Shown here: one piece after another, positions 164 to 21,236 of the stretch
How the letters are laid out: the number at the start of each line of letters is the position of its first letter
Position numbering within the stretch: the first letter of the stretch is position 1
The notes under the pieces: generated by a model
The model's input: only the letters and a program-made list of their open reading frames with translations
Database searches by the model: none
What the model was told of the DNA's origin: nothing
Program-made: the position numbers and the translations under genes
Assembly (NCBI GenBank): GCA_016871995.1
Contig: VHBL01000002.1
Span: 1-32,000, forward strand
DNA: 32,000 bases
DNA from: Nitrososphaerota archaeon
GTDB lineage: Archaea > Thermoproteota > Nitrososphaeria > Nitrososphaerales > UBA57
Direction of reading: 5' to 3'

Positions 164-352
164 TTAACCTTGAGTGTTAGGATGATAGACAGTCTCACTT
201 GGCTGGTCTGTAAGATTCATTTGGCATGATAGCTCGGCTAAAAGTATATTAGGAGCATCCTCAAAATTGCCCAAATCGGGGTTATTTTTGATTATAAGCC
301 TTGAAAATAAGCCAAGAAGGGTAAAGGGTGGTTTTGCCCATGATTTGTCCAT
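164..352 (-). CDS. hypothetical 62-aa ORF
   Basis: ORF only, with no motif recognised. It ends 23 nt upstream of the edge ORF in a neighbouring frame. The two could be one gene broken by a frameshift. Confidence 0.2.
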   Translation of the reverse strand: MDKSWAKPPFTLLGLFSRLIIKNNPDLGNFEDAPNILLAELSCQMNLTDQPSETVYHPNTQG

Positions 353-3300
353 GCTTGCTCAAAAGTATTGACCAGTTAGTAAAAACTGTGTCCTATTTTA
401 TCCGAATAATGGACGATTTGTCCACAATGGTTATATACCAATTTCTAAAACCTGCTCCTACAATTAATAGGTGTGTCCATAGATTGGATAATCGAAAAGT
501 AAAACTGACGGAAAAAATACACGCAGTAGCATTCATAGTGCTACTAGTAACGAGTGCTGTATTCATAGCTGCGCCTGCCTTCACTCCGAAGGCTTCAGCT
601 GCAGTGACAGGTACATTGACACTATCTCACTCTAAGCTGTACGGGAACAGTACACTAAGAATCCTGATAAGCGATTCTGATATCAACTTGGCATCATCGC
701 AATTTTCAAGCCTGAAACTGACCATAACAGCGAGCGGTGCAAATCCGGGCGCTGCAAAGAGCCTTAACGCTACGCAGCTCTCAGATGGTTCTTGGGTTGC
801 TCATATAGCCAACATGTCATGCTCTTCTCTATGTGCATCTAATAACGGTACTATAGGGCATAATAACTATGTACTTGGTCTTAATAGAACTACTAATGTA
901 AACTTTGGAACCGCTACCGGAAGCGTGGTCAGAACTGCCACAGCCATAAGGGTAGGTTCAGGTGGTAATCAAGTTGTAAAAGTAAATAACACAGATGCGC
1001 TAGCATACGTTCTAAACAATCTAAAAAGTGCCACTGGAAGGGTAGCTGGAAAGAACTATATTGAAAACCCAGGCACTATGGCAAGTAGGTACATAAATAG
1101 CACATTACTTAACCCCGTGATCCAACTCTTTAACTTTACCAGACTGGATACATTATCAATAACCTATACCGACTCAACAGGCTCCTCTGGAGGAAGCGTT
1201 GAAGTCACGCAGTCAATTACCTATGAATATACAACTGGAAGTGCTACAAATGATAGAACTTCAATACCAGCATCTGCGATATTAAGACCGGTGATTACCG
1301 ATATCGACAAGAACCGCGATCCCACAAGAGCAGATTCATTCACGGTAAGCAACAACTCCCACGCAGGAGGGAGGACTGGAAGTTTCAAGGAGAGTGGAAG
1401 CGTCTGGTTCGTTATTACAAGCACCAATACTACTGGAAGCATTAGCGGCACTATTGCAAAGAGGAACGGTACAGGTACTGGAGTTCAGCTTACGTTCACT
1501 GAGACTGGACTAAATACAAACGCGTTCGAACTGAATACAACAGCAGGCTTCAACTTGAACAACTCATTCCTGATACGCAGCGGTACATTTCTGCCCAGAG
1601 CTGTAAAAGATGGTGACTTAGTTAGAATTGTCTTCAGCGATATTGAAGCATCTACAGCACTAGCAGCAACAACAACCTTTGGCGTAACCTCAACAGTCTC
1701 TAGGAAGATTGGCTCTATATCTCTATCCACCTCAAGCGCAGCAATATCGAGTGATATTACGGTAACAATAACAGATCTAGATGCAAACAACAATACTAAG
1801 GCAAAAGATAGGTTTGTAGCGCTAGTCAGACTTAACACAACGGCAGGCTCTCTAGGAAGTGCCTCAATGGCGCGCGTTACTGCATGGGAGACCGATACAA
1901 ACTCGAGCACGTTCCAGTTCGTCATTAGACCTACATTATCTAATACAACACGAATCTCAGTATCTTCTACAGCACCCAACAACACACAAATCAACGGCAG
2001 AGTAACTGGTAGCGTTAGACCTGGTGATTCTGCAACATGGTACGTGACATATAACGACAACTTCACAGGCGTAATAACTGTCGCTAATGCAACTGCAAGT
2101 CTTGCGTGGAGCACAGGAACATCAATATCATTAGATAAGACTTCATATGGTTCATCAGACCTTGAGGCTAAGGTAACGCTTACTGAACCAAACGCAAATG
2201 ATTCAACAGCAGCTCAAGAGACGCTATCATTCAACTCTACTAAGAGGACTAGTGTAGAGAACTCAACAGTGAGATTCTCTGGCACCGTCAAGATAGGTAA
2301 CTTTGCATTAGTTGTCATAAACGGCACAAATGGTGGTCAAGGCATACGCAACTTTACAGCACTTGCAATAGAGACCTCAGCCAGCTCTGGTGTCTGGACA
2401 GTCACGATAAACTTGGCAACTCTTCGAGCTCAACCTAACGGTCTCACCAGCACTGATCAACTAAGAGTTTCATACACTAGCAAGTTCACCTCTACTACAT
2501 ACAATTCAACCGCAACTATCGGCGGAACTCTGGCGACGATCAACTTCAACAGAGCAGAATTTCCAATAGCTCCTAACAGAAGAGCAAACATGACCATCAA
2601 CGTGGTCGACACGGATCTGAATCAAAATCCATCCGCACAAGAGACTCTCACCCTAAGACTCTTTATCAGAAACGCAACTGACGGCGTCGTCGGTAACAGA
2701 ATTGCCTCAGGACCAGCAGCAGCACCATCAGGTGACATCAGGAGACTTAGTTGGTTCAATGTATCTTTGACCGAGACAGGACCCAACACAGGCGACTTCT
2801 CAGTGAAGATACTAGTTAACTGGAATAGCAGCAGTGTAGGAATGGCTAGATTAGCAAACTACAGCCACCCAACAAAGGCCCTCTTCAACCTAGATCGGAA
2901 TTCAGATCTAGTGGGCGGTAGGATTCAGGCATGTGTAACTGATGGACTAGGACCCACTACACTTGAAGCATCACAGGCAGGTACTGTCGCAAGTGCAAAA
3001 GGTGTATGCAAATCAATTAACTTCGCTGTACATGGCGCTACAATATCGACGAACGTGACATCAGCCAAGATAGGAACAGCGATCAAGGTCACCCTAACAG
3101 AGCAGGACTTAGACTCGGATGTGGGTGAAAAAGACACGGTCCAGATTAGGTTCGCTATCACAAAGGGTACAGCAGCACCCAGCGAGGACACAACACCTGA
3201 TCTGAACGTTACGCTCACACTCACAGAAACATCAGCCAGCTCAGGTGTATTCACCAATTCCAGCACGCTCGGAACAGGCGTCAACCCATTCAGCCAGGTC

Positions 3301-4485
3301 AACGCAAGCAACCACGTCAGATTCAGATACCAAGACGATGCTGCACCCGGTAGCACTGCATCTGCAGGCCTAGCAAAGGCAAAGATTACTACAACAGTAG
3401 TCGTGGGATCATCAACTGGCACTCTGACAACTATACCTACTTCAGAAACAGGGCCATACAACGTGTTAGTAGTAACGCTGGTCGATCCAGATTTGGCATT
3501 CAACAGGACAGGTACGCTAGGAACAGACTCTACAGGTAGAGTAGTCTTGCACTCGGTAAGGTCTGAGCAGACGAACGACGTAATCAACAATGTCCTAGCT
3601 AAGGAGATGGACCGCACTATAGGCAAGTTCAAGTTCAACATAACCATCTCATACTCGGCCACAGCTGTAACTACCGACCAAACACTCCAAGTCAATGCGA
3701 CCGACAAGATACACCTATTCTACAACGATAGGCTTGACAATGCAGGCGAAGTCAAAGTCGTTGAGAAGATAATCACAGTCACCACAAAGGACGGTGTACT
3801 AGCAACAAACAAGGCAAACTACCTCGTAGGCGAGGTCATAACAATCACTTTGACAGATATCGATGCGAACAGGGACTCAGGAGTAAGGAACACAACTACA
3901 GTAACAGTCACAACGAACAGCTGGACAGCAGGCACAGACATTACACTGCTAGAAGTAGCAGCTGATAGTGGAGTATTCACGGGACAGGTGACCATAGTCA
4001 GCACACTACCATCGGCAGGACAAGTGCTCGGAGCCGTCGGCGACGTAATAACCATAAAGTACATCGATGCATTCGGTAGCGGTGCAGTAAAGAAGACGAT
4101 ACTATTCACCGCACGCGTAGGAACATCCTTACCAAGGACACAGCAAGTCCCAGCATCAGCACCAGCAGTAGTCAACGCACAAGGACAGCCACTGACAACA
4201 GTACGAATGGGTGACGTAGCAACCATACAGGCCACAGTCAGGAACAATGACACAACAGCGCACACATTCACATACCTAGTCCAAGTCAAGAACGCACAAG
4301 GCGTAGTAGTGAGTCTGGCATGGCTCAGAGACATCTCACTAGCTGCAGGAGCGTCAACATCACCAGGTCTGGCCTGGATACCAAGTACGACGGGAACCTA
4401 CACAGTGGAAGTCTTCGTCTGGGAGAGCCTGACTAACGCGGTAGCACTCTCGCCAGTACAGAGGATCACTGTCACAGTGGGTTAG
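328..4485 (+). CDS. giant secreted, sequon-rich surface protein; candidate S-layer lattice subunit (SlaA-like architecture)
   Basis: 4.1-kb uninterrupted ORF. A hydrophobic signal-like segment (AVAFIVLLVTSAVFIAAPAFTPKASA/AV) lies at aa 66-92 of the maximal ORF. The real start is therefore probably ATG 409, ATG 427 or TTG 484, the last with AGGTG upstream. I counted about 40 N-x-S/T sequons by eye. The protein is Thr/Ser/Asn/Val rich and has no C-terminal TM. Motif pairs (V/I)T(L/V)xDxDxN ... ETxxxSGxF recur. The C-terminal ~110 aa looks like an Ig/CARDB-type beta domain. Confidence 0.85.
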   Translation: MVLPMICPCLLKSIDQLVKTVSYFIRIMDDLSTMVIYQFLKPAPTINRCVHRLDNRKVKLTEKIHAVAFIVLLVTSAVFIAAPAFTPKASAAVTGTLTLSHSKLYGNSTLRILISDSDINLASSQFSSLKLTITASGANPGAAKSLNATQLSDGSWVAHIANMSCSSLCASNNGTIGHNNYVLGLNRTTNVNFGTATGSVVRTATAIRVGSGGNQVVKVNNTDALAYVLNNLKSATGRVAGKNYIENPGTMASRYINSTLLNPVIQLFNFTRLDTLSITYTDSTGSSGGSVEVTQSITYEYTTGSATNDRTSIPASAILRPVITDIDKNRDPTRADSFTVSNNSHAGGRTGSFKESGSVWFVITSTNTTGSISGTIAKRNGTGTGVQLTFTETGLNTNAFELNTTAGFNLNNSFLIRSGTFLPRAVKDGDLVRIVFSDIEASTALAATTTFGVTSTVSRKIGSISLSTSSAAISSDITVTITDLDANNNTKAKDRFVALVRLNTTAGSLGSASMARVTAWETDTNSSTFQFVIRPTLSNTTRISVSSTAPNNTQINGRVTGSVRPGDSATWYVTYNDNFTGVITVANATASLAWSTGTSISLDKTSYGSSDLEAKVTLTEPNANDSTAAQETLSFNSTKRTSVENSTVRFSGTVKIGNFALVVINGTNGGQGIRNFTALAIETSASSGVWTVTINLATLRAQPNGLTSTDQLRVSYTSKFTSTTYNSTATIGGTLATINFNRAEFPIAPNRRANMTINVVDTDLNQNPSAQETLTLRLFIRNATDGVVGNRIASGPAAAPSGDIRRLSWFNVSLTETGPNTGDFSVKILVNWNSSSVGMARLANYSHPTKALFNLDRNSDLVGGRIQACVTDGLGPTTLEASQAGTVASAKGVCKSINFAVHGATISTNVTSAKIGTAIKVTLTEQDLDSDVGEKDTVQIRFAITKGTAAPSEDTTPDLNVTLTLTETSASSGVFTNSSTLGTGVNPFSQVNASNHVRFRYQDDAAPGSTASAGLAKAKITTTVVVGSSTGTLTTIPTSETGPYNVLVVTLVDPDLAFNRTGTLGTDSTGRVVLHSVRSEQTNDVINNVLAKEMDRTIGKFKFNITISYSATAVTTDQTLQVNATDKIHLFYNDRLDNAGEVKVVEKIITVTTKDGVLATNKANYLVGEVITITLTDIDANRDSGVRNTTTVTVTTNSWTAGTDITLLEVAADSGVFTGQVTIVSTLPSAGQVLGAVGDVITIKYIDAFGSGAVKKTILFTARVGTSLPRTQQVPASAPAVVNAQGQPLTTVRMGDVATIQATVRNNDTTAHTFTYLVQVKNAQGVVVSLAWLRDISLAAGASTSPGLAWIPSTTGTYTVEVFVWESLTNAVALSPVQRITVTVG

Positions 4486-4532
4486 GTGCATCCTAGATGC
4501 ACTCCCCCTCTCTTTTCTTTGAGGCGAACAAA

Positions 4533-5759
4533 ATGATCAAGAACATATCAATCGCACTATTACTGGTATCAATGATACTGGTGGCTTCGCCACTAGCGTC
4601 AGCACAAGCTGTAACTGCAACAACTAACAAGACGAACTATGTGGCTGGAGACAGACTGAGTGTCGCAGGTGTAGGTCCCGCAAATGACGATGTGACAGTC
4701 ACTCTAACCAATCCTAACGGAGCGTTGGTAGGCATTGCTCAAGGTAGAGTCAGTTCGAACAACGTGTACAACGTTACTGTGCTAACATTTCCGTCTGGTG
4801 ACCAGAGATTCCCATTTGGAGCCTATTCAGTCCGAGTAACAGCGGCAGCCGCAGCAGCATCAACAACAGTCACAATAAACTTTGCAGCAACTACAGGTAC
4901 TGTAACGCCACCACCAGCAGTAGGCGGTGCTGGAGGGCTAATAGTATCCGTCCATGCGGAAGGGACATACTTTTCAGGTGATAGAGTCCGTATCTACGCA
5001 ATAATAACAAACAATGGTGCTCTAGCAGACCCAACAGCATTTTCGGCAGCTCACGTCCACAGGATGGACAATACAATAGATCAGTTGCTGGGAACTCAGC
5101 AGAGAATACATGCTGGCTGGTATTATTTCGACTACACTGTTCCAGCTAATGCAGCTCCTGGAACCTATGGTGTTCATGTTGGAGTTACATTAGCCTCTGC
5201 AGGAAGTAACGGCGATGCGGCATTCCAAGTAGCACCAGCAAACAGGGACACGGCAGCACTTGCAACACAGCTTACAACCATAAACACGGCTATCCAAGGT
5301 GTCAGCACAGCTCTAAACGGGCTGAGCCAATCATTCACTGCACATGACCAAAGATTAACAGCTATTCAGACAGCAGTCACGACAGCACAGACAGCGATAA
5401 CTGGAAGGATCAATACTCTGGATACAGACATAACATCAAGGCTGAATGGTGTTGCGGGAGCAGTTGGGACTCAGATAATAACAGCGCAGAATACTATTGT
5501 ACAGAGAGTCGATGGCATACCAGCATCAGTAAACACCGCAGTCACAACGGCAGTTCAGAATGCACAAACAGCTATAACAACTGCAGTCAAGAATGGATTT
5601 ACTGAGCTCGGTGGCAATGTAGAGGAGATCGAGGACAGCGTCAGAAGCGCAGCAGCGGGAACTGCACAGTCATCAACATTCGTGCTGGTGATTGCAGGGC
5701 TAGCTGCATTGAGCGTAGTGCTCCAGATAGCCATACTCACGAGAAAGAAGAGCGCATAG
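4533..5759 (+). CDS. membrane-anchored coiled-coil surface protein; candidate S-layer stalk/anchor (SlaB-like architecture)
   Basis: ATG 4533 is preceded by GAGG 9 nt upstream (the ORF-track start at 4497 is less likely). The signal peptide is MIKNISIALLLVSMILVASPLASAQA. Two beta-rich segments follow, then ~140 aa of T/A/Q/I/N-rich heptad-like sequence (TAIQGVSTALNGLSQSF...TAQTAITGRINTLDTDITSRLNG...). The protein ends in a single TM helix (FVLVIAGLAALSVVLQIAIL) and a basic tail (TRKKSA). The start lies 47 nt after the upstream stop. Confidence 0.8.
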   Translation: MIKNISIALLLVSMILVASPLASAQAVTATTNKTNYVAGDRLSVAGVGPANDDVTVTLTNPNGALVGIAQGRVSSNNVYNVTVLTFPSGDQRFPFGAYSVRVTAAAAAASTTVTINFAATTGTVTPPPAVGGAGGLIVSVHAEGTYFSGDRVRIYAIITNNGALADPTAFSAAHVHRMDNTIDQLLGTQQRIHAGWYYFDYTVPANAAPGTYGVHVGVTLASAGSNGDAAFQVAPANRDTAALATQLTTINTAIQGVSTALNGLSQSFTAHDQRLTAIQTAVTTAQTAITGRINTLDTDITSRLNGVAGAVGTQIITAQNTIVQRVDGIPASVNTAVTTAVQNAQTAITTAVKNGFTELGGNVEEIEDSVRSAAAGTAQSSTFVLVIAGLAALSVVLQIAILTRKKSA

Positions 5760-5828: not shown

Positions 5829-7328
5829 ATGCAAAACCAAGGTGATGGTTCAGGGTTACGTATCGCTTATGCCGGGTTCGTCCAGTTCCTAACTCAACTT
5901 GTAGGCTTGGGAACGGGCCTGCTTTTTGTTACTCTAATTACCAGAAACCTTACCGTTTCTGATTTTGGACTCTGGCAGGTTATTGGGAGCGCAGTAGGGA
6001 TAGCTATCCTTCCTGCGAGTGTCGTCACGTTCTGGAACCTCCGGGGTGTTGCCAGAAGGGAGGACGTAGGTCGAACTTCAGTTGTTGCAGGTATGCTATC
6101 GCTTCCCCTAACTTTTGCAATTCTTTTAGCAGTTTCCACTGGTGTAGGTTCACGGATAGAACTGGTTGGCTTTGTTGTCATTGCAGCATTGCTCCAGTTA
6201 CCATTCATGGTACTCTTCGAATCGGTAAAAGGTACCATCCAAGCTACGAAACCGGCATTTCTTGGTTATTCGAGCATTTTCTTTGAAATTGCAAAGGTTA
6301 GCGTAGCGTTCTATCTGGTAATCATGCTGAAAGTAGGCCTTTACGGCGCCATATTGGCCCTTGCCTTGGCATATGCAATACAAGACCTGATAATAATCAT
6401 CACAGTAAAAGGGAAACTTGGAGGTAGAATAGATCTCGCATTAATCAAGCAATGGATAAAGGCAGCTTGGGTGCCTCTTCTTGATAGAGGGGTCAGCAGG
6501 CTCTGGAGTTCTGACGCCATTCTGGTTGCTCTGATGCTCGGAAGTACAGTTCCGGTGGGGTTGTTTCAGGGACCGAGGATCTTTACAGCGATAATAATGT
6601 ATAGCGAGATATTTCTCCGTGTTCTTTACCCGAAGCTCATAAGAGACAGATTGAAGGCTGATATTGGAGTAGCATTCAGGCTGCAGAGCCTTCTGGAAGT
6701 TCCTATGGTCGTGGGCGCAGTCATGCTTGCTGGAGACCTCCTTTCTGTACTTGGAGCAGAGTATGTCAGTTCGGCTCTTCTTTTACAGCTTCTAGCAATT
6801 GTAGCAGTTGTGGAGAGCATAGAGCGCGTAATGTACTTTGTACTTTACGGTACAGAGACTGTAGACTCGAAACGTGATGGTTATTCGTTCAAGAACCTCA
6901 AGTCGAGCTGGCTAGTAAAGCTTCCACTGCTGGATCTATCAAAGTCTGTTATATACATGGGCGCACTTGCAGCTGCGCTGTATCTTTTTGCTACACCCGC
7001 TAAACCGGAGCTTGTAGCTTTGATCTGGGGAATTATTTACGCAGTAGTAACAGTGCCTTATGCTGTACTGAAGTTGATACTGGCTCGAAAGTTCTTCCCG
7101 CATACTCTACCTTGGGTGCAGCTCGTGAAATATGTGGTTGCTGGGGTTGTTATGGGGTTAGTACTTTTGCTTTTTAGAGGAGAGACTCCTGCAGAGCTAA
7201 GCGTAATATCCGCAGTTATCCGTCTTGGATATCTAGTAGGTTTGGGTGCTGGAGTCTATTTCGGAATTCTGGCACTAATCGATTCGCACTTTAGGGGCAT
7301 GGTCAAAACCCTAACCAAAAGACAGTGA
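5829..7328 (+). CDS. polysaccharide/oligosaccharide flippase (MOP/Wzx-type polysaccharide biosynthesis protein)
   Basis: 499 aa, hydrophobic throughout, with roughly 12-14 predicted TM segments. The N-terminal pattern (GFVQFLTQLVGLGTGLLFVTLITRNLTVSDFGLWQVIGS) is typical of Wzx/RfbX-type proteins. It sits among glycosylation genes. Confidence 0.75.
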   Translation: MQNQGDGSGLRIAYAGFVQFLTQLVGLGTGLLFVTLITRNLTVSDFGLWQVIGSAVGIAILPASVVTFWNLRGVARREDVGRTSVVAGMLSLPLTFAILLAVSTGVGSRIELVGFVVIAALLQLPFMVLFESVKGTIQATKPAFLGYSSIFFEIAKVSVAFYLVIMLKVGLYGAILALALAYAIQDLIIIITVKGKLGGRIDLALIKQWIKAAWVPLLDRGVSRLWSSDAILVALMLGSTVPVGLFQGPRIFTAIIMYSEIFLRVLYPKLIRDRLKADIGVAFRLQSLLEVPMVVGAVMLAGDLLSVLGAEYVSSALLLQLLAIVAVVESIERVMYFVLYGTETVDSKRDGYSFKNLKSSWLVKLPLLDLSKSVIYMGALAAALYLFATPAKPELVALIWGIIYAVVTVPYAVLKLILARKFFPHTLPWVQLVKYVVAGVVMGLVLLLFRGETPAELSVISAVIRLGYLVGLGAGVYFGILALIDSHFRGMVKTLTKRQ

Positions 7329-11282: not shown

Positions 11283-11590
11283 CAGTGTACAGGTGTAAGG
11301 ACTGTTCTTCAACAACCGTGTCTTACAGGGCAATATGCCAGAACTGCTCTTCGAAGAACATTGAAAGCGTTAAACTGGATGGCAGAGGGAGGATATTCGC
11401 ATATACGATAATCAGGGTAGCTCCTGAGCAGTTCAAGACGCAAGAGCCATATGCTGTTGGGATTGTGAAACTGGATTCTGGTCAACTGGTTAGCGGGAGG
11501 CTAATAGCGCAAAATTTGGAGATACTAGAAAACGGGATGAAAGTAGTGCTCGAAAATGTAGATGATGCAGGCTTCTGGTTCAGAGTTTAG
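11255..11590 (+). CDS. DUF35 Zn-ribbon/OB-fold protein (thiolase-associated scaffold)
   Basis: The Zn ribbon is CKDC-x10-CQNC, followed by an OB-like segment (GRIFAYTIIRVAP...PYAVGIVKLDSGQLVSGRL). It overlaps the thiolase 3' end by 28 nt. An alternative GTG start at 11285 would remove the overlap. Confidence 0.85.
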   Translation: MRSEHSQKVAVYRCKDCSSTTVSYRAICQNCSSKNIESVKLDGRGRIFAYTIIRVAPEQFKTQEPYAVGIVKLDSGQLVSGRLIAQNLEILENGMKVVLENVDDAGFWFRV

Positions 11591-13707
11591 CTCAGGGTTA
11601 CTGGATGGAACCTGATTCTTCTTGCAGAGTTGCTTAGAGAGCCCACAATAGCGATCTTATAGCCGCAGTTTAGACACTTGTTATTCCTGTCCATCTTCCA
11701 GTCTAGTATGTCGTAGCCGTAGCGTTGCACAACTATCTGCTTGCATCCAGGGCAGTAGGTATGCTCGAGAGAATGGCCTGGGACGTTTCCTATGTAGACA
11801 TAGTTCAAACCAACCTCTTTTCCTATTTCATGGTGCCTGACAAGTGTCTCTATAGGCGTCATAGGAAAGTCCATCATCTTGTAGTCAGGGTGGAAGCGCA
11901 AGAAGTGTATCGGAGTATCGGGGCCAAGGTTGTCATATACCCACTTTGAAAGATGCCTTGCAGAGTCTAGAGAATCGCCCACTCTGGGCACTATCAAGTC
12001 AGTAATTTCAAGATGAATCTTAGTTTTCCCTTTTAGTTCGAGGAGGTTCTGAAAGATAGGATCAGCACTGGGTATGCCTATGAACTTCCTGACAAATTCC
12101 CTCTCCCCGCTGCCTTTGAAGTCCACAGTAATACAGTCTAAAAAGTTGGGCATCATTGCAATTGATGGAGGCGTCATGAAACCGTTTGAAACGAAGATGT
12201 TGATCAAGCCTTCCTTCCTTGCGACTAGCCCTATGTCATGGGCATATTCAATGAATATGGTGGGTTCGTTGTAGGTGTATGCTATGCCATCGGCTTGATA
12301 CTTCTTGGCCATTTTGACAATATGCTGTGGTGAAGCATCAGTACCTTCTACCTTTCTTCTCTGGCTTATGTCGAAATTCTGGCAATAATGGCAATTATGA
12401 ACCAGAATGCCATCCGCGACATAGTTATGGTTGGGGATACATTCTAAGCTGTACACTTCCTCGAATCTTTTGGCTTGCTCTATGGATTCGATAGTTAACC
12501 ACTGTCTCTTATTCGTTCTGACTACAGGAGCTGACCTTTCAAGCAGAAGAGTTTTTACCTCTTCTGGATGGTTGAAAAGTTGCCTTCCAGATATTCGGAT
12601 TACCCGCCAGCCATTAAGCTCGAGTGTTTGGTCTCTGATTTTGTCGTTTTTTGCAACCTGTAAGGAGTTATAATGCCACCAGCCATCTACTTCGATGTCT
12701 ATTTTCGCCTCAATCAACGCGGCATCGGCTATATAGTAAGACTTTGAACCCTCGATTCCCTTTTCCACTTTGATCTTGTATTCGGGCTGGTATGGTAGAC
12801 TTAATTCTTCGAGTAATCTATAGAGACGCTCCTGCCCTTCCGAGGGGTACCTGTAAAGCCATGTTCTAAGCCTCTCAACATTGCAGTGCCAACCATACGA
12901 TGGATCTGAGAGAAACCTTTCTTGACTAGTCTTTATCAGCTTTTTTACACATTCAGTTTCCTTCATAGGGTTATTGTTTAACATCCTGTTTCTGACATTT
13001 GCTGAATGCTCCTCAGTCCACTCCAACCCTCTGACGTAGCACTCTCCTCTATGCGCATTCCAGGCAGCTAGTCCTGTAACTCTGGCGCTACATACTGCAC
13101 ACCTAAAGACTGCGTTCTTAATGGATTCACTTCTCTTTGAATGCCAAGTTGGCGTATTTTGATACCAGACTTTTAAGACGTTGTCACCATCATTCAGCTC
13201 TCCTACCTCTTTCCAACCTCGCTGTGTTAGTACGGGGTGCTCCTTGGTTGCATAGAAAGTGCCGTGGCCCCTACTTCCATAAGATACTTCATAGATTTCT
13301 GCCCACCTTCTTCCAACGTGAGTAACTACTGAAGGAACGATTTTGAAACCTTTGTTAACCTCGTAAGACCACAGCGTGTCACCTGGCAGTATGCTTTCGA
13401 CTGTCTTTTGGCTCCCATCGGCCATCATAATATTCGTACCCTTTGGATGACAAAGCCAGTTACAACCCGTGGTAGCTATGGAGAATATTTTGGAGCCAGG
13501 CATAAAATGGGTTACTGGCTTCTTTTCTATCGGGTCTACGTGTCCAGCTATGACCTTGCCATAAACCAGAAGTTGGAGTTTACCATCAATGTTCTGCCTG
13601 ATTCCGCAGAGCCCGATCTTTCCTTCTGGTATGTTACAGTATCTGGAACAAGCAGTACAGAGAACTCTCTTTTCTGGCAGCTGCTCGTATAGGACGGCTT
13701 CCTTCAA
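11587..13707 (-). CDS. AmmeMemoRadiSam-type radical SAM enzyme (AmrS / PFL-activase-like) interrupted by an intein
   Basis: The exteins read MKEAVLYEQLPEKRVLCTACSRYCNIPEGKIGLCGIRQN...SIATTGCNWL // CHYCQNFDISQ...YTYNEPTIF...C-terminal CPGC...CLNC ribbon. Removing aa 86-438 restores GCNWLCHYCQN, the CxxxCxxC motif. The start codon is TTG. Its stop overlaps the convergent DUF35 stop. Confidence 0.9.
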   Translation of the reverse strand: MKEAVLYEQLPEKRVLCTACSRYCNIPEGKIGLCGIRQNIDGKLQLLVYGKVIAGHVDPIEKKPVTHFMPGSKIFSIATTGCNWLCHPKGTNIMMADGSQKTVESILPGDTLWSYEVNKGFKIVPSVVTHVGRRWAEIYEVSYGSRGHGTFYATKEHPVLTQRGWKEVGELNDGDNVLKVWYQNTPTWHSKRSESIKNAVFRCAVCSARVTGLAAWNAHRGECYVRGLEWTEEHSANVRNRMLNNNPMKETECVKKLIKTSQERFLSDPSYGWHCNVERLRTWLYRYPSEGQERLYRLLEELSLPYQPEYKIKVEKGIEGSKSYYIADAALIEAKIDIEVDGWWHYNSLQVAKNDKIRDQTLELNGWRVIRISGRQLFNHPEEVKTLLLERSAPVVRTNKRQWLTIESIEQAKRFEEVYSLECIPNHNYVADGILVHNCHYCQNFDISQRRKVEGTDASPQHIVKMAKKYQADGIAYTYNEPTIFIEYAHDIGLVARKEGLINIFVSNGFMTPPSIAMMPNFLDCITVDFKGSGEREFVRKFIGIPSADPIFQNLLELKGKTKIHLEITDLIVPRVGDSLDSARHLSKWVYDNLGPDTPIHFLRFHPDYKMMDFPMTPIETLVRHHEIGKEVGLNYVYIGNVPGHSLEHTYCPGCKQIVVQRYGYDILDWKMDRNNKCLNCGYKIAIVGSLSNSARRIRFHPVTLS
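12394..13452 (-). mobile_element. intein (353 aa) with an embedded endonuclease module
   Basis: The first residue is Cys (CHPKGTNIMMADGS, block A). Block B TxxH is ATKEHPVLT. Blocks F/G are VYSLECIPNHNYVADGILVHN, followed by the +1 Cys. The central ~210 aa lacks LAGLIDADG motifs. It carries a C2HC finger and a DUF559/Vsr-like stretch: YYIADAALIEAKIDIEVDGWWH...GWRVIRISGRQL. Confidence 0.85.
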
Positions 13708-13990
13708 TTAAGATAATAATGGTTTAGGTCTGCTATAAAGAGTGGGGTACCCTCAGGTTAGCTTCTATTGACGGGGGCCACAAAGCCAGAATGAATCCTC
13801 CTGACTAAAGTAAGAGTTACCAAACGTATCCTAGGTGCAAGAAGCCCTTGTTTAAAATAAATCCAAAGCTCTACGGTTCGGACATTTTAACTCCAATAGT
13901 TTCTATGACTCAAGATAAAGGACCTGATCAACGCGTGAAGAATAAAAATGGCAACCTCTAAATCTAATCGCTATAACGGCTCAGGGGCGT

Positions 13991-14016
13991 GCCACCGTAG
14001 CTCAGCTCGGTAAAGC
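13991..14016 (+). pseudogene. tRNA 5' fragment (acceptor 5' strand + D-arm) without a matching 3' half
   Basis: GCCACCGTAGCTCAGCTCGGTAAAGC matches the 5' end of the tRNA-Asn at 21133 in 23/26 positions. No CGGTGGC acceptor partner or T-arm is present downstream. The following sequence ends in a T6 run at 14102-14107. Confidence 0.5.
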
Positions 14017-14025
14017 CCGGACTCT

Positions 14026-14103
14026 ACCGTATAATGTCCAAAAATTCCAAATGGATACGGAAAATTCCTCTCCACCTATGGAGGCAGGTTGCGAAGCCTC
14101 CTT
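14026..14103 (+). repeat. left copy of inverted repeat (partner 21046-21121)
   Basis: The core 14067-14103 (CCTCTCCACCTATGGAGGCAGGTTGCGAAGCCTCCTT) is the reverse complement of 21046-21082 at 34/37 positions. The outer 8-mer ACCGTATA (14026-14033) is the reverse complement of 21114-21121. The 31-33 nt between core and 8-mer are divergent. The core can form a GGAGGC/GCCTCC hairpin. Confidence 0.6.
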
Positions 14104-14298
14104 TTTTGTTTCGGAAAAGAAGGCAGCTTCCGATGCCATGAGTTAAGTCTATATGTCATGCAGAATGAAACCTAAAGTCACTATTCGGGTAATTAGGGCA
14201 GCTTGTTTGAATGACCTTTGATTCAACAAGACTAAAAGGCTCTATCTTCTGATTGATGCTATCGTCTTCCCGTTTGACTTGTCCATGATATTAATTTG

Positions 14299-14508
14299 CT
14301 AAGGATGCACGCTGAAAACTACATGCCCCAAGACATCTATCAGCTCACGGCCTTTTTCGTTGTCCAATTTTTCAGAGGTGCCTGAAGCCACCATATCGTG
14401 GAATGAGTGTTTGCTCTTTGGCACACCATTGGTTCTAATGTGTCCAACAACTGGCTGGCTGTTGTAGAATTTGGCCCTGATGTCCTGAGCTTCTTTCTGA
14501 TTTTTCAT
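14299..14508 (-). CDS. hypothetical 69-aa protein
   Basis: A TATA-like tttttata (complement of 14535-14542) lies ~30 nt upstream of the ATG. This is consistent with a leaderless or short-leader transcript. No motif recognised. Confidence 0.45.
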   Translation of the reverse strand: MKNQKEAQDIRAKFYNSQPVVGHIRTNGVPKSKHSFHDMVASGTSEKLDNEKGRELIDVLGHVVFSVHP

Positions 14509-14674
14509 ATCTGGCGTTTATAGGAGGACCGCACTATAAAAAGAGGTACAAGACGGATTTTTTGGATCTCCCAATTCGCCGCTTCCCGTAAGTTACAAGA
14601 GGAGGTAATCGTACTTAGTTCCTGCAAAATACATATCCAGCTCCTCGGCTAGATTGACAAGGATAACTCTGGAT

Positions 14675-14791
14675 CTAGCGATTACTTCTGCTCTTTTTAC
14701 CTTCCGCATAGCATTCTTTCCGATGCTTTCTGAAGACTAGGGTTCCGTAGAAGGTCTTGCCACACCTTTTGCAAACATTTTTATCTGGCAT
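14675..14791 (-). CDS. 38-aa C2HC zinc-finger mini-protein (below the ORF-track cutoff)
   Basis: Translates as MPDKNVCKRCGKTFYGTLVFRKHRKECYAEGKKSRSNR. The spacing C-x2-C-x12-H-x3-C is the classical zinc-finger spacing, with aromatic and Leu core positions. Confidence 0.3.
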   Translation of the reverse strand: MPDKNVCKRCGKTFYGTLVFRKHRKECYAEGKKSRSNR

Positions 14792-15084
14792 AATTACACG
14801 AACTTTGAAGGCAAGACATAGTTAGTACCTGGTCTTTAGCTGCTTTATTAACAAGATGCCACCTATAACATCAGATAAAAATGCTCAAAAGACAAAGCAA
14901 AGGAATGAAAAAATCATTATCCAAGAAACGCTCCAAAACTAGAGATAGTAGAGCAAAACGGCAACACGAGGTAGGACTACATAAGCCAGTATAGTGGTAT
15001 TTCCCTAACTAAATTATGTCTAATGATCAAATGTCTGAATTAGAGCTAAGTTTCAACATGGCCAGTAAAGAAGGCTAGCTAGAA

Positions 15085-15237
15085 ATGGGGCGAGTTTCTC
15101 GATGCAAGTTCTGCGAACAAGAGATTGTTTGGATGGCTAGCTCAGGATCGGCCCAGCGTCCGTTCAATCTTAGCGGGAGTCCTCATCATTGTGTATCGCG
15201 GCTAGCTATGTTGGTCGCTGATACAGGATCCAAGTGA
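15085..15237 (+). CDS. 50-aa zinc-ribbon-like mini-protein (below the ORF-track cutoff)
   Basis: Translates as MGRVSRCKFCEQEIVWMASSGSAQRPFNLSGSPHHCVSRLAMLVADTGSK, with CxxC ... HHC ligand candidates. It ends 9 nt before the hflX start. Confidence 0.3.
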   Translation: MGRVSRCKFCEQEIVWMASSGSAQRPFNLSGSPHHCVSRLAMLVADTGSK

Positions 15238-15246
15238 AGTAGAGCA

Positions 15247-18962: not shown

Positions 18963-21003
18963 TTGCCTGTGTTGGCAGAAAAGCAAACTGTGTGCCCTTT
19001 CTGCGGTGTTGGTTGCGGCATAACCGTTTCAATAGTTGATGGAATACCAAAAAGAGTCCTTGGAGTCAAGGATCATCCTGTGAGTAGAGGGCATTTATGT
19101 GCAAAGGGCCTAGCGGCACTTGACATTCTGGCATCAAAGGAACGCTTGGGATATCCTCTAAAGAGAAACAACTTTGGCTCTTTTGAAAGAATTTCGTGGT
19201 CTAACGCTTTATCACAAATTAGTTCACGCATTAGAAGCATTGTTGAAAGACATGGTTCTGACACAATAGCCTTCTCAGGCGGCTGCTTGTGCACAAATGA
19301 AGAAAACTATCTGATTCAGAAACTTGCAAGGAGAATCGGAACTAATAACGTTGACAGCTGCGCAAGGCTCTGCCATCAACCATCTCTACATGCATTGAAG
19401 CGTATGGTAGGTTTCGGTGCTGCAAGCACTCCAATGAGTAGCATGAAGGATTCTAAACTATTAATGTTCATAGGCTCTAGTCTTGCTGACTCGCATCCCA
19501 TACTTACTCAATATGTAATGGCAGCCAAGAACAACGGGGCCAAAGTAATAGACATAGATCCTAGAGAGCCTTCCCTTGCTAGCTAAGTTTGCAGACCTTC
19601 ATCTGAAGATATCACCGGGGACTGATATTGCTCTGCTGAATGCTATGGCTAATGTAATCATAAGCGAGGGTCTTCAGAATGAACAGTTCATTCAAGATAG
19701 GACGACTGGCTACGAAGAGTTTAAGCAAGCAGTGGAGAAGTATTCACCTGAGAGCGTTGAAAGAATAACTAATGTGAATCCTTTTTTGATAAGGCAGGTT
19801 GCAAGACTATATGCCACGTCCGGAACGTCACTGATTCTTGCAGGGATAGGCATTACAGAGCAAATTCAAGGAACAAATACGGTCGCAGCAGTAGTCAACC
19901 TTGCACTTCTGACAGGCAATTATGGCAGGACAGGCACGGGAGTATGCCCTTTAAGGGGTCAGTCCAATGTTCAGGGGGCAGGAGATGTTGGAGCCTCTTC
20001 AGAGTTCTTCCCCGGAGGGCTAACAGTTAATGTAGAAAATGCAAAAGTGATGGAGAAAGCGTGGAGGTTCACAGTTCCTTCAAATGGAGGAGCAACGATG
20101 ATGGAGATGATCTCCAAAGCGCTGACCGGAGAGATCAAAGCTCTGTATTTTATGGGCTTCAACCCTGTGCACAGCCTTCCAGACAGGACACGGACAGAAA
20201 AGGCGCTTTCATCTCTTGAATTACTGGTAGTTCAGGACATCTTCATGAGCTCAACTGCAAACTTTGCGCACTATGTCCTCCCATGTGCAACTTGGCTAGA
20301 ACGGGAGGGTTCAACGACAAACATGGACAGAATGGTTCAATGGAGGGACAAGCTTTTAGCTCCATTGGGAGAAGCAAAGCCGGACTGGGAAATTCTTATC
20401 GAACTAGCAAAGGTACTAGGTTTCAGTGAGTTTGACTATAACTCTCCGCGTGATGTCTTGAAGGAGATAAGTCAGGTAGTTCGTGCATATTCAGGCATAA
20501 GCTGGGAACTGCTTTCAAGCAACATAGAGGTTCGATACCCTCTAGCGGATGGTAAAAACACTGATGTGCTCTTCGCGGAAAAGTTCAATACACGTGATGG
20601 TAAAGCAAATTTTGTACCCGTCGAATACCTACCAATTCAGTTCACCTCTGAAGAATTCCCTTTCGTGTTGACAACAGGTAGAGTAATTTCCAGATACAAT
20701 ACAGATGTTATGACTGGCAAATCAAAGCTACTGCTCATTCCTGGGACAGACATCAACTATGTTGAAGTTAATCCCGAAGACGCTGAAAGAATCGGTTTCA
20801 GGGAAGGGGACAAGGCGAGCATCACTTCGAGGTTTGGCAATGTGGTCCTGAGCGTGAGGATAACAACGTCAGTAAGGAATGGAATGTTGTTTGCACCAAT
20901 GCATGGAGGTATGGTGAACTATGTCACAGGAGGGTGCTTAGATGAAACTTCCCTTACTCCGTGCTACAAATGGACTGCTGTAAGACTGGCGCGTGCCGTT
21001 TAG
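18963..21003 (+). pseudogene. molybdopterin oxidoreductase, formate dehydrogenase alpha (FdhF-like, Cys type), split by a 1-nt frameshift
   Basis: The N-terminal 4Fe-4S motif is CPFCGVGCG...GHLCAKG. The active-site context CARLCHQPS is a Cys-His pair at the position where FdhH has SeCys-His. Frame 1 ends IDIDPREPSLAS* at 19586. Frame 2 continues LAKFADLHLKISPGTDIALLN, and the two frames overlap at 19558-19586. No Tat signal. Confidence 0.8.
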
Positions 21004-21132: not shown

Positions 21133-21236
21133 GCCACCGTAGCTCAGCGTGGTAGAGCAGCTGAATATTGTGCTGATGCTGTTACCTCGTTGAGAGAGAA
21201 ACCAGCTGGTCGTCGGTTCAAGTCCGACCGGTGGCG
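21133..21236 (+). tRNA. tRNA-Asn(GUU) with two short introns (14 nt at 30/31; 16 nt at 37/38)
   Basis: Acceptor stem GCCACCG/CGGTGGC, discriminator G73. D-arm GCTC-AGCGTGGTA-GAGC. T-arm GTCGG-TTCAAGT-CCGAC. Removing 21164-21177 and 21185-21200 gives the anticodon arm GCTGG-CTGTTAA-CCAGC. Both introns can be drawn as bulge-helix-bulge motifs (see findings). The mature length is 74 nt. CCA is not encoded. Confidence 0.8.

Follow-up and report, generated by a model that had tools for sequence, protein, structure and literature searches.

How can a radical S-adenosylmethionine (SAM) enzyme complete its [4Fe-4S] cluster site when 353 residues lie between the first and second ligand cysteines of its CxxxCxxC motif? 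The question is raised by amrS, a gene for an AmmeMemoRadiSam-type enzyme on the reverse strand of contig VHBL01000002.1 of a Nitrososphaerota archaeon (GenBank assembly GCA_016871995.1). Positions 1 to 32,000 of this contig, a stretch of 32 kb, are referred to here as the window. The interrupting segment is very probably a mobile intein of class 1 that carries a DUF559/Vsr-like homing endonuclease nested inside it and is seated within the CxxxCxxC [4Fe-4S] motif of AmrS; the archaeon is of the Nitrososphaeria type. The original prediction, made from the DNA of the window, had already placed an intein of 353 amino acids at 12394..13452 (residues 86–438), and translation shows these coordinates to be exact to the base. 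The precursor gene and its parts are listed below, with splice junctions in motifs marked by a caret throughout the text.

11587..13707, reverse strand: whole precursor gene, AmmeMemoRadiSam-type radical SAM enzyme plus intein; 706 amino acids, ~81 kDa, TTG start, TAA stop (TIGR04337, 315 bits).
13453..13707, reverse strand: N-extein, residues 1–85, ending ...TTGCNWL and holding the first cluster cysteine, C82 (codon 13462..13464); placed by alignment to GCLMRCLYCHN of pyruvate formate-lyase activating enzyme (3c8f).
12394..13452, reverse strand: intein, residues 86–438, 353 amino acids, ~41 kDa, running from Cys1 to His-Asn (PF14890, 47.5 bits; TIGR01443; Foldseek HINT matches of the AlphaFold2 model).
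13159..13452, reverse strand: N-terminal lobe of the HINT domain, intein residues 1–98, with block A (Cys1) and block B T69-K-E-H72 (codons 13237..13248); invariant residues, phmmer alignment to the Mtu RecA intein.
13039..13101, reverse strand: C2HC zinc-finger-like motif C118-x2-C121-x12-H134-x3-C138 (intein numbering), with four invariant ligand residues and a putative function.
12811..13038, reverse strand: helical linker, intein residues 139–214, with the invariant R-M-x3-N-P-M (AlphaFold2 model, alignment) and a putative function.
12517..12810, reverse strand: DUF559/Vsr-like nuclease domain of the PD-(D/E)xK superfamily, intein residues 215–312 (DUF559, 32.1 bits; Foldseek match to 3r3p; profile alignments).
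12394..12516, reverse strand: C-terminal lobe of the HINT domain, intein residues 313–353, with blocks F and G, ending ...YVADGILVHN (TIGR01443, phmmer against the Mtu RecA intein, intein alignment).
11587..12393, reverse strand: C-extein, residues 439–706 plus the stop codon, beginning CHYCQNFDISQ (translation, MAFFT, 3c8f alignment).

In the translation of 11587..13707, the intein opens with CHPKGT at residue 86 and closes with ...LVHN at residue 438. Excision of these residues joins ...SIATTGCNWL to CHYCQNFDISQ..., restoring C82-x3-C-x2-C (GCNWLCHYCQN), and leaves a spliced product of 353 amino acids and ~40 kDa. The junction peptide of this product reads ...TTGCNWLCHYCQNFDISQR, also written GCNWLCHYCQNFDISQR. 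C439 doubles as the +1 nucleophile and the second cluster cysteine, and C442 is the third.

The host enzyme is of the AmmeMemoRadiSam type, as had been proposed. Against NCBIfam TIGR04337 (AmmeMemoRadiSam system radical SAM enzyme; cut-off 220), the spliced form scores 333.4 bits and the precursor 315.2 bits. The match of the spliced form is a single colinear stretch (residues 7–334 against model positions 4–331), and there is therefore no net insertion or deletion (indel) at the splice junction. The segment C82-NWL-C439-HY-C442 aligns to the C-LMR-C-LY-C cluster cysteines of pyruvate formate-lyase activating enzyme (PDB 3c8f). With the spliced sequence as query, 6950 homologs were returned at E ≤1e-30, the top ones being intein-free proteins of 353–355 amino acids (P0027, P0028, and P0029, at 89%, 86%, and 84% identity). 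When the precursor was aligned by MAFFT with six intein-free homologs, three of them at 84–89% identity, and with three intein-containing homologs, a lone clean gap appeared precisely at the L85/C439 boundary. The colinear profile match and the single gap bear out the seamless junction expected from TIGR04337-type sequences, and translation, MAFFT, and the 3c8f alignment agree with the earlier claim that the insertion lies between the first and second cysteines of the motif, so that the +1 nucleophile is the second cluster cysteine.

Empty alleles, which the original prediction had left to a survey of homologs, are present at 84–89% identity and are syntenic. In the contigs that carry them (those of P0027, P0028, and P0029), the neighboring genes are the same as in the window, with amrS convergent with an OB-fold (DUF35-type) gene. 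In the longest of these contigs, the OB-fold gene is followed by a thiolase and then a class-V aminotransferase, matching the window. Because the gene neighborhood is shared, the locus is orthologous, and the intein is polymorphic there, present in some genomes and absent from others. The empty-site DNA in L002 reads GGTTGTAACTGGCTT^TGCCGTTATTGCCAG, and L003 and L004 are similar; the site is also written GGTTGTAACTGGCTT^TGCCATTATTGCCAG and, for L002 and L004, ...GGTTGTAACTGGCTT^TGCCRTTATTGYCAR....

The region directly upstream of amrS (13708..15246, ~1.5 kb) has no open reading frame (ORF) longer than 69 amino acids. An Rfam search (E ≤0.1) and a repeat search of this region gave no match and no repeats. 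The upstream neighbors of amrS differ among the empty-allele contigs, with GSDH in L002 and small ORFs in L003. Within the window, the 30 ORFs searched (24 of at least 110 amino acids, the target gene, two short ones) gave no Pfam match to the AMMECR1 and Memo partners.

Profile scans identify the inserted segment as a real intein, as first proposed: it scores 47.5 bits against Pfam Intein_splicing PF14890 (curated cut-off 35.8) and about 23–25 bits against TIGR01443 intein_Cterm (curated cut-off 15.6). An alignment of eight intein sequences shows no variation at T69, E71, H72, H352, or N353. Blocks A (Cys1), B (TKEH), and G (His-Asn^Cys) are canonical, as had been stated for the whole set, but block F lacks its usual Asp. 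An AlphaFold2 model of the intein, built on 17 sequences and with a mean predicted local distance difference test (pLDDT) score of 77, contains a beta-rich HINT domain formed by residues 1–98 and 313–353 and split by a mostly helical insert. In Foldseek searches against the PDB, the HINT part matches the Mtu RecA, Ssp/Npu DnaB, and gp41-1 inteins and BIL/Hedgehog domains with E-values of ~1e-6 to 1e-4, those of the inteins being 1e-5 to 1e-4. On its Cys1, TKEH block B, His-Asn end, and Cys+1, the element is a class-1 intein. A chance insertion is no concern, because the identical site is occupied in 32 independently assembled genomes.

The insert that splits the HINT domain contains a nuclease. 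Intein residues 239–304 match Pfam PF04480 (DUF559) at 32.1 bits (cut-off 20.6), a score that denotes membership of DUF559 only, the EDxHD family itself having no profile. Foldseek aligns the insert with the catalytic domain of I-Bth0305I (3r3p; E 8.6e-4, template-modelling score on the target 0.78), and a profile built from the nuclease segment can be aligned with the DUF559 structure 3hrl, with 3r3p, and with the nuclease domain of PvuRts1I. Conserved residues in this segment include D243, E254-x-D256, H260, D270, and R273. In the intein alignment, C118, C121, H134, and C138 of the C2HC motif are all invariant; the motif has classical zinc-finger spacing with Cys as its last ligand and gives weak profile matches to C2H2 fingers. 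The RMxxxNPM helix motif is likewise invariant. The C2HC motif and the RMxxxNPM helices are presumed to be DNA-binding elements of the endonuclease module. By homology, the element is thus a bifunctional intein with a Vsr/DUF559-like PD-(D/E)xK endonuclease, neither LAGLIDADG nor HNH, for which cleavage activity is predicted. The intein anatomy given in the original prediction holds; the nested DUF559/Vsr-like endonuclease had been overlooked.

Close relatives of the intein (42–63% identity) occur in AmrS proteins only and form 26 clusters, with source names that include Nitrososphaera, Thaumarchaeota, Nitrosotalea sp. TS, Nitrososphaerales, Thermoplasmata, and 'Methanobacteriota'. Among GTDB species, each represented by one genome, a scan yielded 38 loci, 32 of them readable across both junctions. 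All 32 have the intein in exactly the same position, GC(N/S)W(L/A/H)^C...HN^CxYCQN, and in most of them its length is exactly 353 amino acids. Other copies are decayed (L040 with eight stop codons, L024 with one) or are mini-inteins that lack the endonuclease (P0025, P0156). In closely related, comparable pairs, the ratio of nonsynonymous to synonymous substitution rates (dN/dS) is 0.03–0.22 across the HINT lobes, the finger and linker, and the nuclease, and the value for the C-extein is comparable at 0.03–0.05. By this measure, the endonuclease module is under purifying selection.

The histories of intein and host are discordant. The exteins of the window gene are 60–68% identical to those of other intein-bearing genes versus 84–89% to intein-free orthologs. 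In the pair L006/L008, the inteins are 79% identical versus 68% for the host genes, and in the pair L010/L013, synonymous divergence (dS) of the intein is 0.39, about half of the 0.78 of the exteins. This discordance fits sporadic gain by homing plus loss, the usual cycle of mobile inteins, and the mini-inteins P0025 and P0156 and the decayed L040 fit the same cycle. A search of viral contigs returned a weak match to the nuclease alone and no sign of a viral vector.

Several observations weigh against this interpretation. The block F position, often Asp, is Ser/Ala/Gly in this intein clade according to the intein alignment, a minor departure. GC content gives no sign of recent import (0.446 in the intein; 0.463 and 0.452 in the exteins). 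At only 64% identity, the nearest intein found is too distant to demonstrate recent homing into this lineage. Nor does strong purifying selection on the endonuclease single out active homing, for a domesticated role of benefit to the host would fit it as well.

Established class-1 intein chemistry and homing-endonuclease biology allow us to infer the steps by which a mobile class-1 intein of this kind would leave the protein and spread. The 81-kDa precursor would undergo an N-S acyl shift at Leu85-Cys86, aided by Thr69 and His72 of block B. The resulting thioester would be attacked by Cys439 (+1) in a trans-thioesterification, and Asn438, aided by His437, would then cyclize. An S-N shift would link Leu85 to Cys439, giving a 40-kDa enzyme with an intact C-N-W-L-C-H-Y-C, ready for its cluster. 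The freed 41-kDa intein would recognize amrS alleles that lack it and cleave them at a conserved stretch of DNA, the one coding for GCNWLCxYCQN, and repair from the intein-bearing allele would copy the element into the cut allele. Because Cys439 is both nucleophile and ligand, and because the first ligand lies 353 residues from the other two, full AmrS activity should require splicing. That the precursor is unable to bind the cluster and that splicing could be redox sensitive, both put forward in the original prediction, are sensible inferences. Since the intein fold juxtaposes residues −1 and +1, Cys-4, Cys1, Cys+1, and Cys+4 are probably close in space. Metal or disulfide chemistry among these junction cysteines of the precursor is possible, and a disulfide or metal there would be expected to inhibit splicing.

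The nearest precedent is the Pyrococcus abyssi (Pab) MoaA intein, which also has a radical SAM host and needs reduction of a native Cys-3/Cys1 disulfide before it can splice (Callahan et al. 2011 NSMB, in the summaries of PMC3922620 and PMC10663303). Both are class-1 inteins in oxygen-sensitive archaeal radical SAM enzymes with an N-extein cysteine shortly before Cys1. They differ in host (MoaA versus AmrS/TIGR04337) and in the position of the upstream cysteine, which is −3 (CxxC) in MoaA and −4 (CxxxC) in AmrS. The MoaA site is given in these reviews as Cys-3/Cys1, which may lie in a CxxxCxxC motif or in another cysteine pair.

Two families curated in NCBIfam, NF038136 (intein-containing Rv2578c family radical SAM) and NF045703 (tetraether lipid synthase Tes, intein-containing), are likewise intein-bearing radical SAM enzymes. 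Their hosts differ from AmrS, and the window protein scores far below both cut-offs and belongs to neither. The window protein matches NF038136 partially, over the intein part only (42.7 bits against a cut-off of 700), with Cys1 at about model position 76. In P0180, an Rv2578c-like protein with CGYNCRY^C, residues 73–461 are colinear with NF038136 positions 46–340 across the junction, which suggests that the NF038136 intein is also located in the cluster motif. The novelty that the original prediction claimed for the radical SAM cluster loop as a host site was therefore overstated, given the published MoaA case, the two curated families, and related inteins elsewhere. In the literature searched, no paper describes an AmrS intein or the cluster motif as an intein site. 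The AmrS intein is so far undescribed, although inteins in radical SAM enzymes are already known and the sequences are already public.

The nuclease also has relatives among known mobile elements. I-Bth0305I (described in 2011; PMC3239194) and DUF559 (PF04480; PDB 3hrl) share the nuclease fold, and the AmrS nuclease and I-Bth0305I are each tied to self-splicing elements. The catalytic D196, H213, and D222 of I-Bth0305I (residue numbers from PMC3239194) align, with the same spacing, to D243, H260, and D270 in the AmrS intein. Earlier work places Vsr-like endonucleases in group I introns and in free-standing ORFs that separate the halves of split inteins (PMC3239194). I-Bth0305I itself belongs to a group I intron and has relatives of the free-standing kind, whereas the AmrS nuclease lies in frame inside a contiguous intein; I-Bth0305I has NUMOD/helix-turn-helix repeats where the AmrS intein has a C2HC finger. 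By sequence, the AmrS nuclease scores as DUF559 and is not an identified EDxHD member. The LAGLIDADG homing inteins (PI-SceI, PI-PfuI, Tli VMA) resemble the AmrS intein in their endonuclease-split HINT domain, highly conserved catalytic target motif, and +1 Cys. They differ in that the AmrS intein carries a Vsr/DUF559-like PD-(D/E)xK nuclease, and in that AmrS is a metabolic enzyme whereas their hosts act in replication or repair or as ATPases. A review of inteins lists only LAGLIDADG, HNH, GIY-YIG, and His-Cys box endonucleases (PMC7765530), and the AmrS locus documents a contiguous intein with a DUF559/Vsr-like endonuclease, a type not on that list.

Searched exhaustively with phmmer, 1.84 billion representative proteins yielded 1219 matches at E ≤0.001, the best 150 of which were inspected; the following sites come from those 150. 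Excision of the intein restores CxxxCxxC in 15 proteins, whose hosts were assigned by weak NCBIfam/Pfam matches or by the motif itself. Inteins lie before Cys2 in AmrS, an Rv2578c-like host, and a B12-binding radical SAM protein; before Cys3 in a SPASM radical SAM protein, in Rv2578c-like hosts, and in five QueE-like proteins; and before Cys1 in a B12-binding methyltransferase-like protein. Entries in other families with Cys2 or Cys3 as the +1 residue (SPASM-type, Rv2578c-like, QueE-like GCNLxCPx^CDTDY) are P0154, P0157, P0179, P0180, P0192, P0209, P0234, P0237, and P0289, all metagenome proteins. Taken together, these sites make the cluster loop of radical SAM enzymes look like a hot spot for repeated intein insertion.

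Some proteins carry two inteins in one CxxxCxxC motif, three extein residues apart: P0164 and L012 (AmrS), P0173, and P0230 and P0185 (B12-binding radical SAM). The tandem AmrS layout is GCNWL^intein 1^C(R/Q)Y^intein 2^CQNFDISQ. In P0164 (946 amino acids), intein 1 is a mini-intein of 170 amino acids and intein 2, of 405 amino acids, has LAGLIDADG-like motifs by eye. L012 is one continuous ORF at about 2775–5442 (position estimated from the translation), with a 353-amino-acid DUF559 intein first and a mini-intein second. P0151 (520 amino acids) has a HINT plus DUF559 intein just before the first Cys of CPHC in a glutaredoxin-like protein, where a redox-active cysteine is the +1 residue. The HINT plus DUF559 architecture is also found in phage Mu F-like proteins.

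The alternative that survives best holds that the intein is more than a parasite and acts as a conditional switch, in which a disulfide (Cys-4/Cys1 or Cys+1/Cys+4), a metal, or an iron-sulfur (Fe-S) species blocks splicing, so that an oxygen-labile enzyme would be completed only under reducing conditions or with an adequate iron-sulfur supply. We consider this unlikely, though it has points in its favor. The MoaA intein offers a precedent with a radical SAM host and a Cys-3/Cys1 disulfide (PMC3922620, PMC10663303). The junction pairs CNWL^C and C^HYC, a CxxxC and a CxxC, are kept in all 32 loci, and every intein module is under strong purifying selection. Many hosts are labelled Nitrososphaera, Nitrososphaeraceae, or Nitrosotalea; such lineages are aerobic, a setting that endangers a radical SAM cluster. 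However, the junction cysteines are already explained as host cluster ligands and intein nucleophiles, the nearest orthologs thrive without an intein, and the mini and decayed copies are what a selfish element would be expected to leave. It is doubtful, too, that the four-cysteine junction acts as a redox/iron-sulfur checkpoint, at which a disulfide, or a metal or cluster bound by the precursor, would block the Cys+1 attack, that the intein has been kept under strong purifying selection as a post-translational switch, and that the CxxxCxxC loop is an unrecognised intein hot spot exploited in this way, with all three ligand cysteines serving as +1 residues and tandem inteins three residues apart.

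It is much less probable that the intein has lost its splicing or its endonuclease activity and that the interrupted gene is a non-functional relic, or pseudogene. The absence of Asp from block F, the decay of related copies (L040 and L024), and the failure to find the AMMECR1 and Memo partners within the window could be read in this way. Against this, the 706-codon ORF is intact, the splicing nucleophiles and assisting residues are all present and invariant, the exteins are 84–89% identical to intein-free orthologs with no indels, and dN/dS in related pairs is well below 1 for both intein and extein. An assembly chimera or a gene fusion with a non-intein Hint/BIL domain, a thought raised by the BIL domains of the same HINT fold among the top Foldseek matches, is effectively ruled out by the clean MAFFT gap and the site identity of the 32 loci, given that the identical codon is occupied in 32 independent assemblies, that one continuous host protein lies on both flanks, and that the His-Asn^Cys junction is intein-specific, with PF14890 and TIGR01443 both above cut-off.

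Public annotation of these genes is uneven. A naturally split or interrupted gene was suggested by the many homologs of 610 amino acids that start 'MADGS...' inside the intein; the underlying ORFs are continuous, and these are therefore mis-called starts. L001 (the contig of P0012) carries at 2674–4833 a continuous ORF of 719 codons that includes the N-extein, and the N-terminal junction was read in frame in all 32 GTDB loci. The mis-called entries P0002, P0003, P0005, P0007, P0008, and P0012 (610–615 amino acids) use an internal Met start within the intein (M-ADGS...), and such amrS entries lose the N-extein and the first cluster cysteine. Other public intein-containing amrS entries are named only 'DUF559 domain-containing protein', and their underlying ORFs are continuous.

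Elsewhere in the window, a molybdopterin oxidoreductase on the forward strand is divided between two overlapping ORFs in different frames (18963..19586 and 19576..21003). The Fe4S4 domain and the beginning of the Molybdopterin domain fall in the first ORF, the remainder and the dinucleotide-binding domain in the second; a frameshift, an error in sequencing, or a recoding site could explain the split. Rfam places a tRNA at 21133..21236 (forward strand, 49.8 bits), which probably contains an intron given its span of 104 nt, and ARAGORN in bacterial mode reported no tRNA across the whole window. Large consecutive ORFs at 328..4485, 4497..5759, and 5829..7328 (forward strand; 1385, 420, and 499 amino acids) gave no Pfam match at E ≤1e-5.

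If splicing proceeds as predicted, these archaea need it for AmrS activity, since one ligand of the catalytic [4Fe-4S] cluster doubles as the splicing nucleophile. The most interesting points are the recurrent, sometimes tandem, intein occupation of the radical SAM cluster motif and the possible redox or Fe-S control of splicing. Given splicing as predicted, AmrS would provide a natural system for asking whether Fe-S loading, oxidants, or zinc compete with splicing, an idea that the Pab MoaA intein has also raised.

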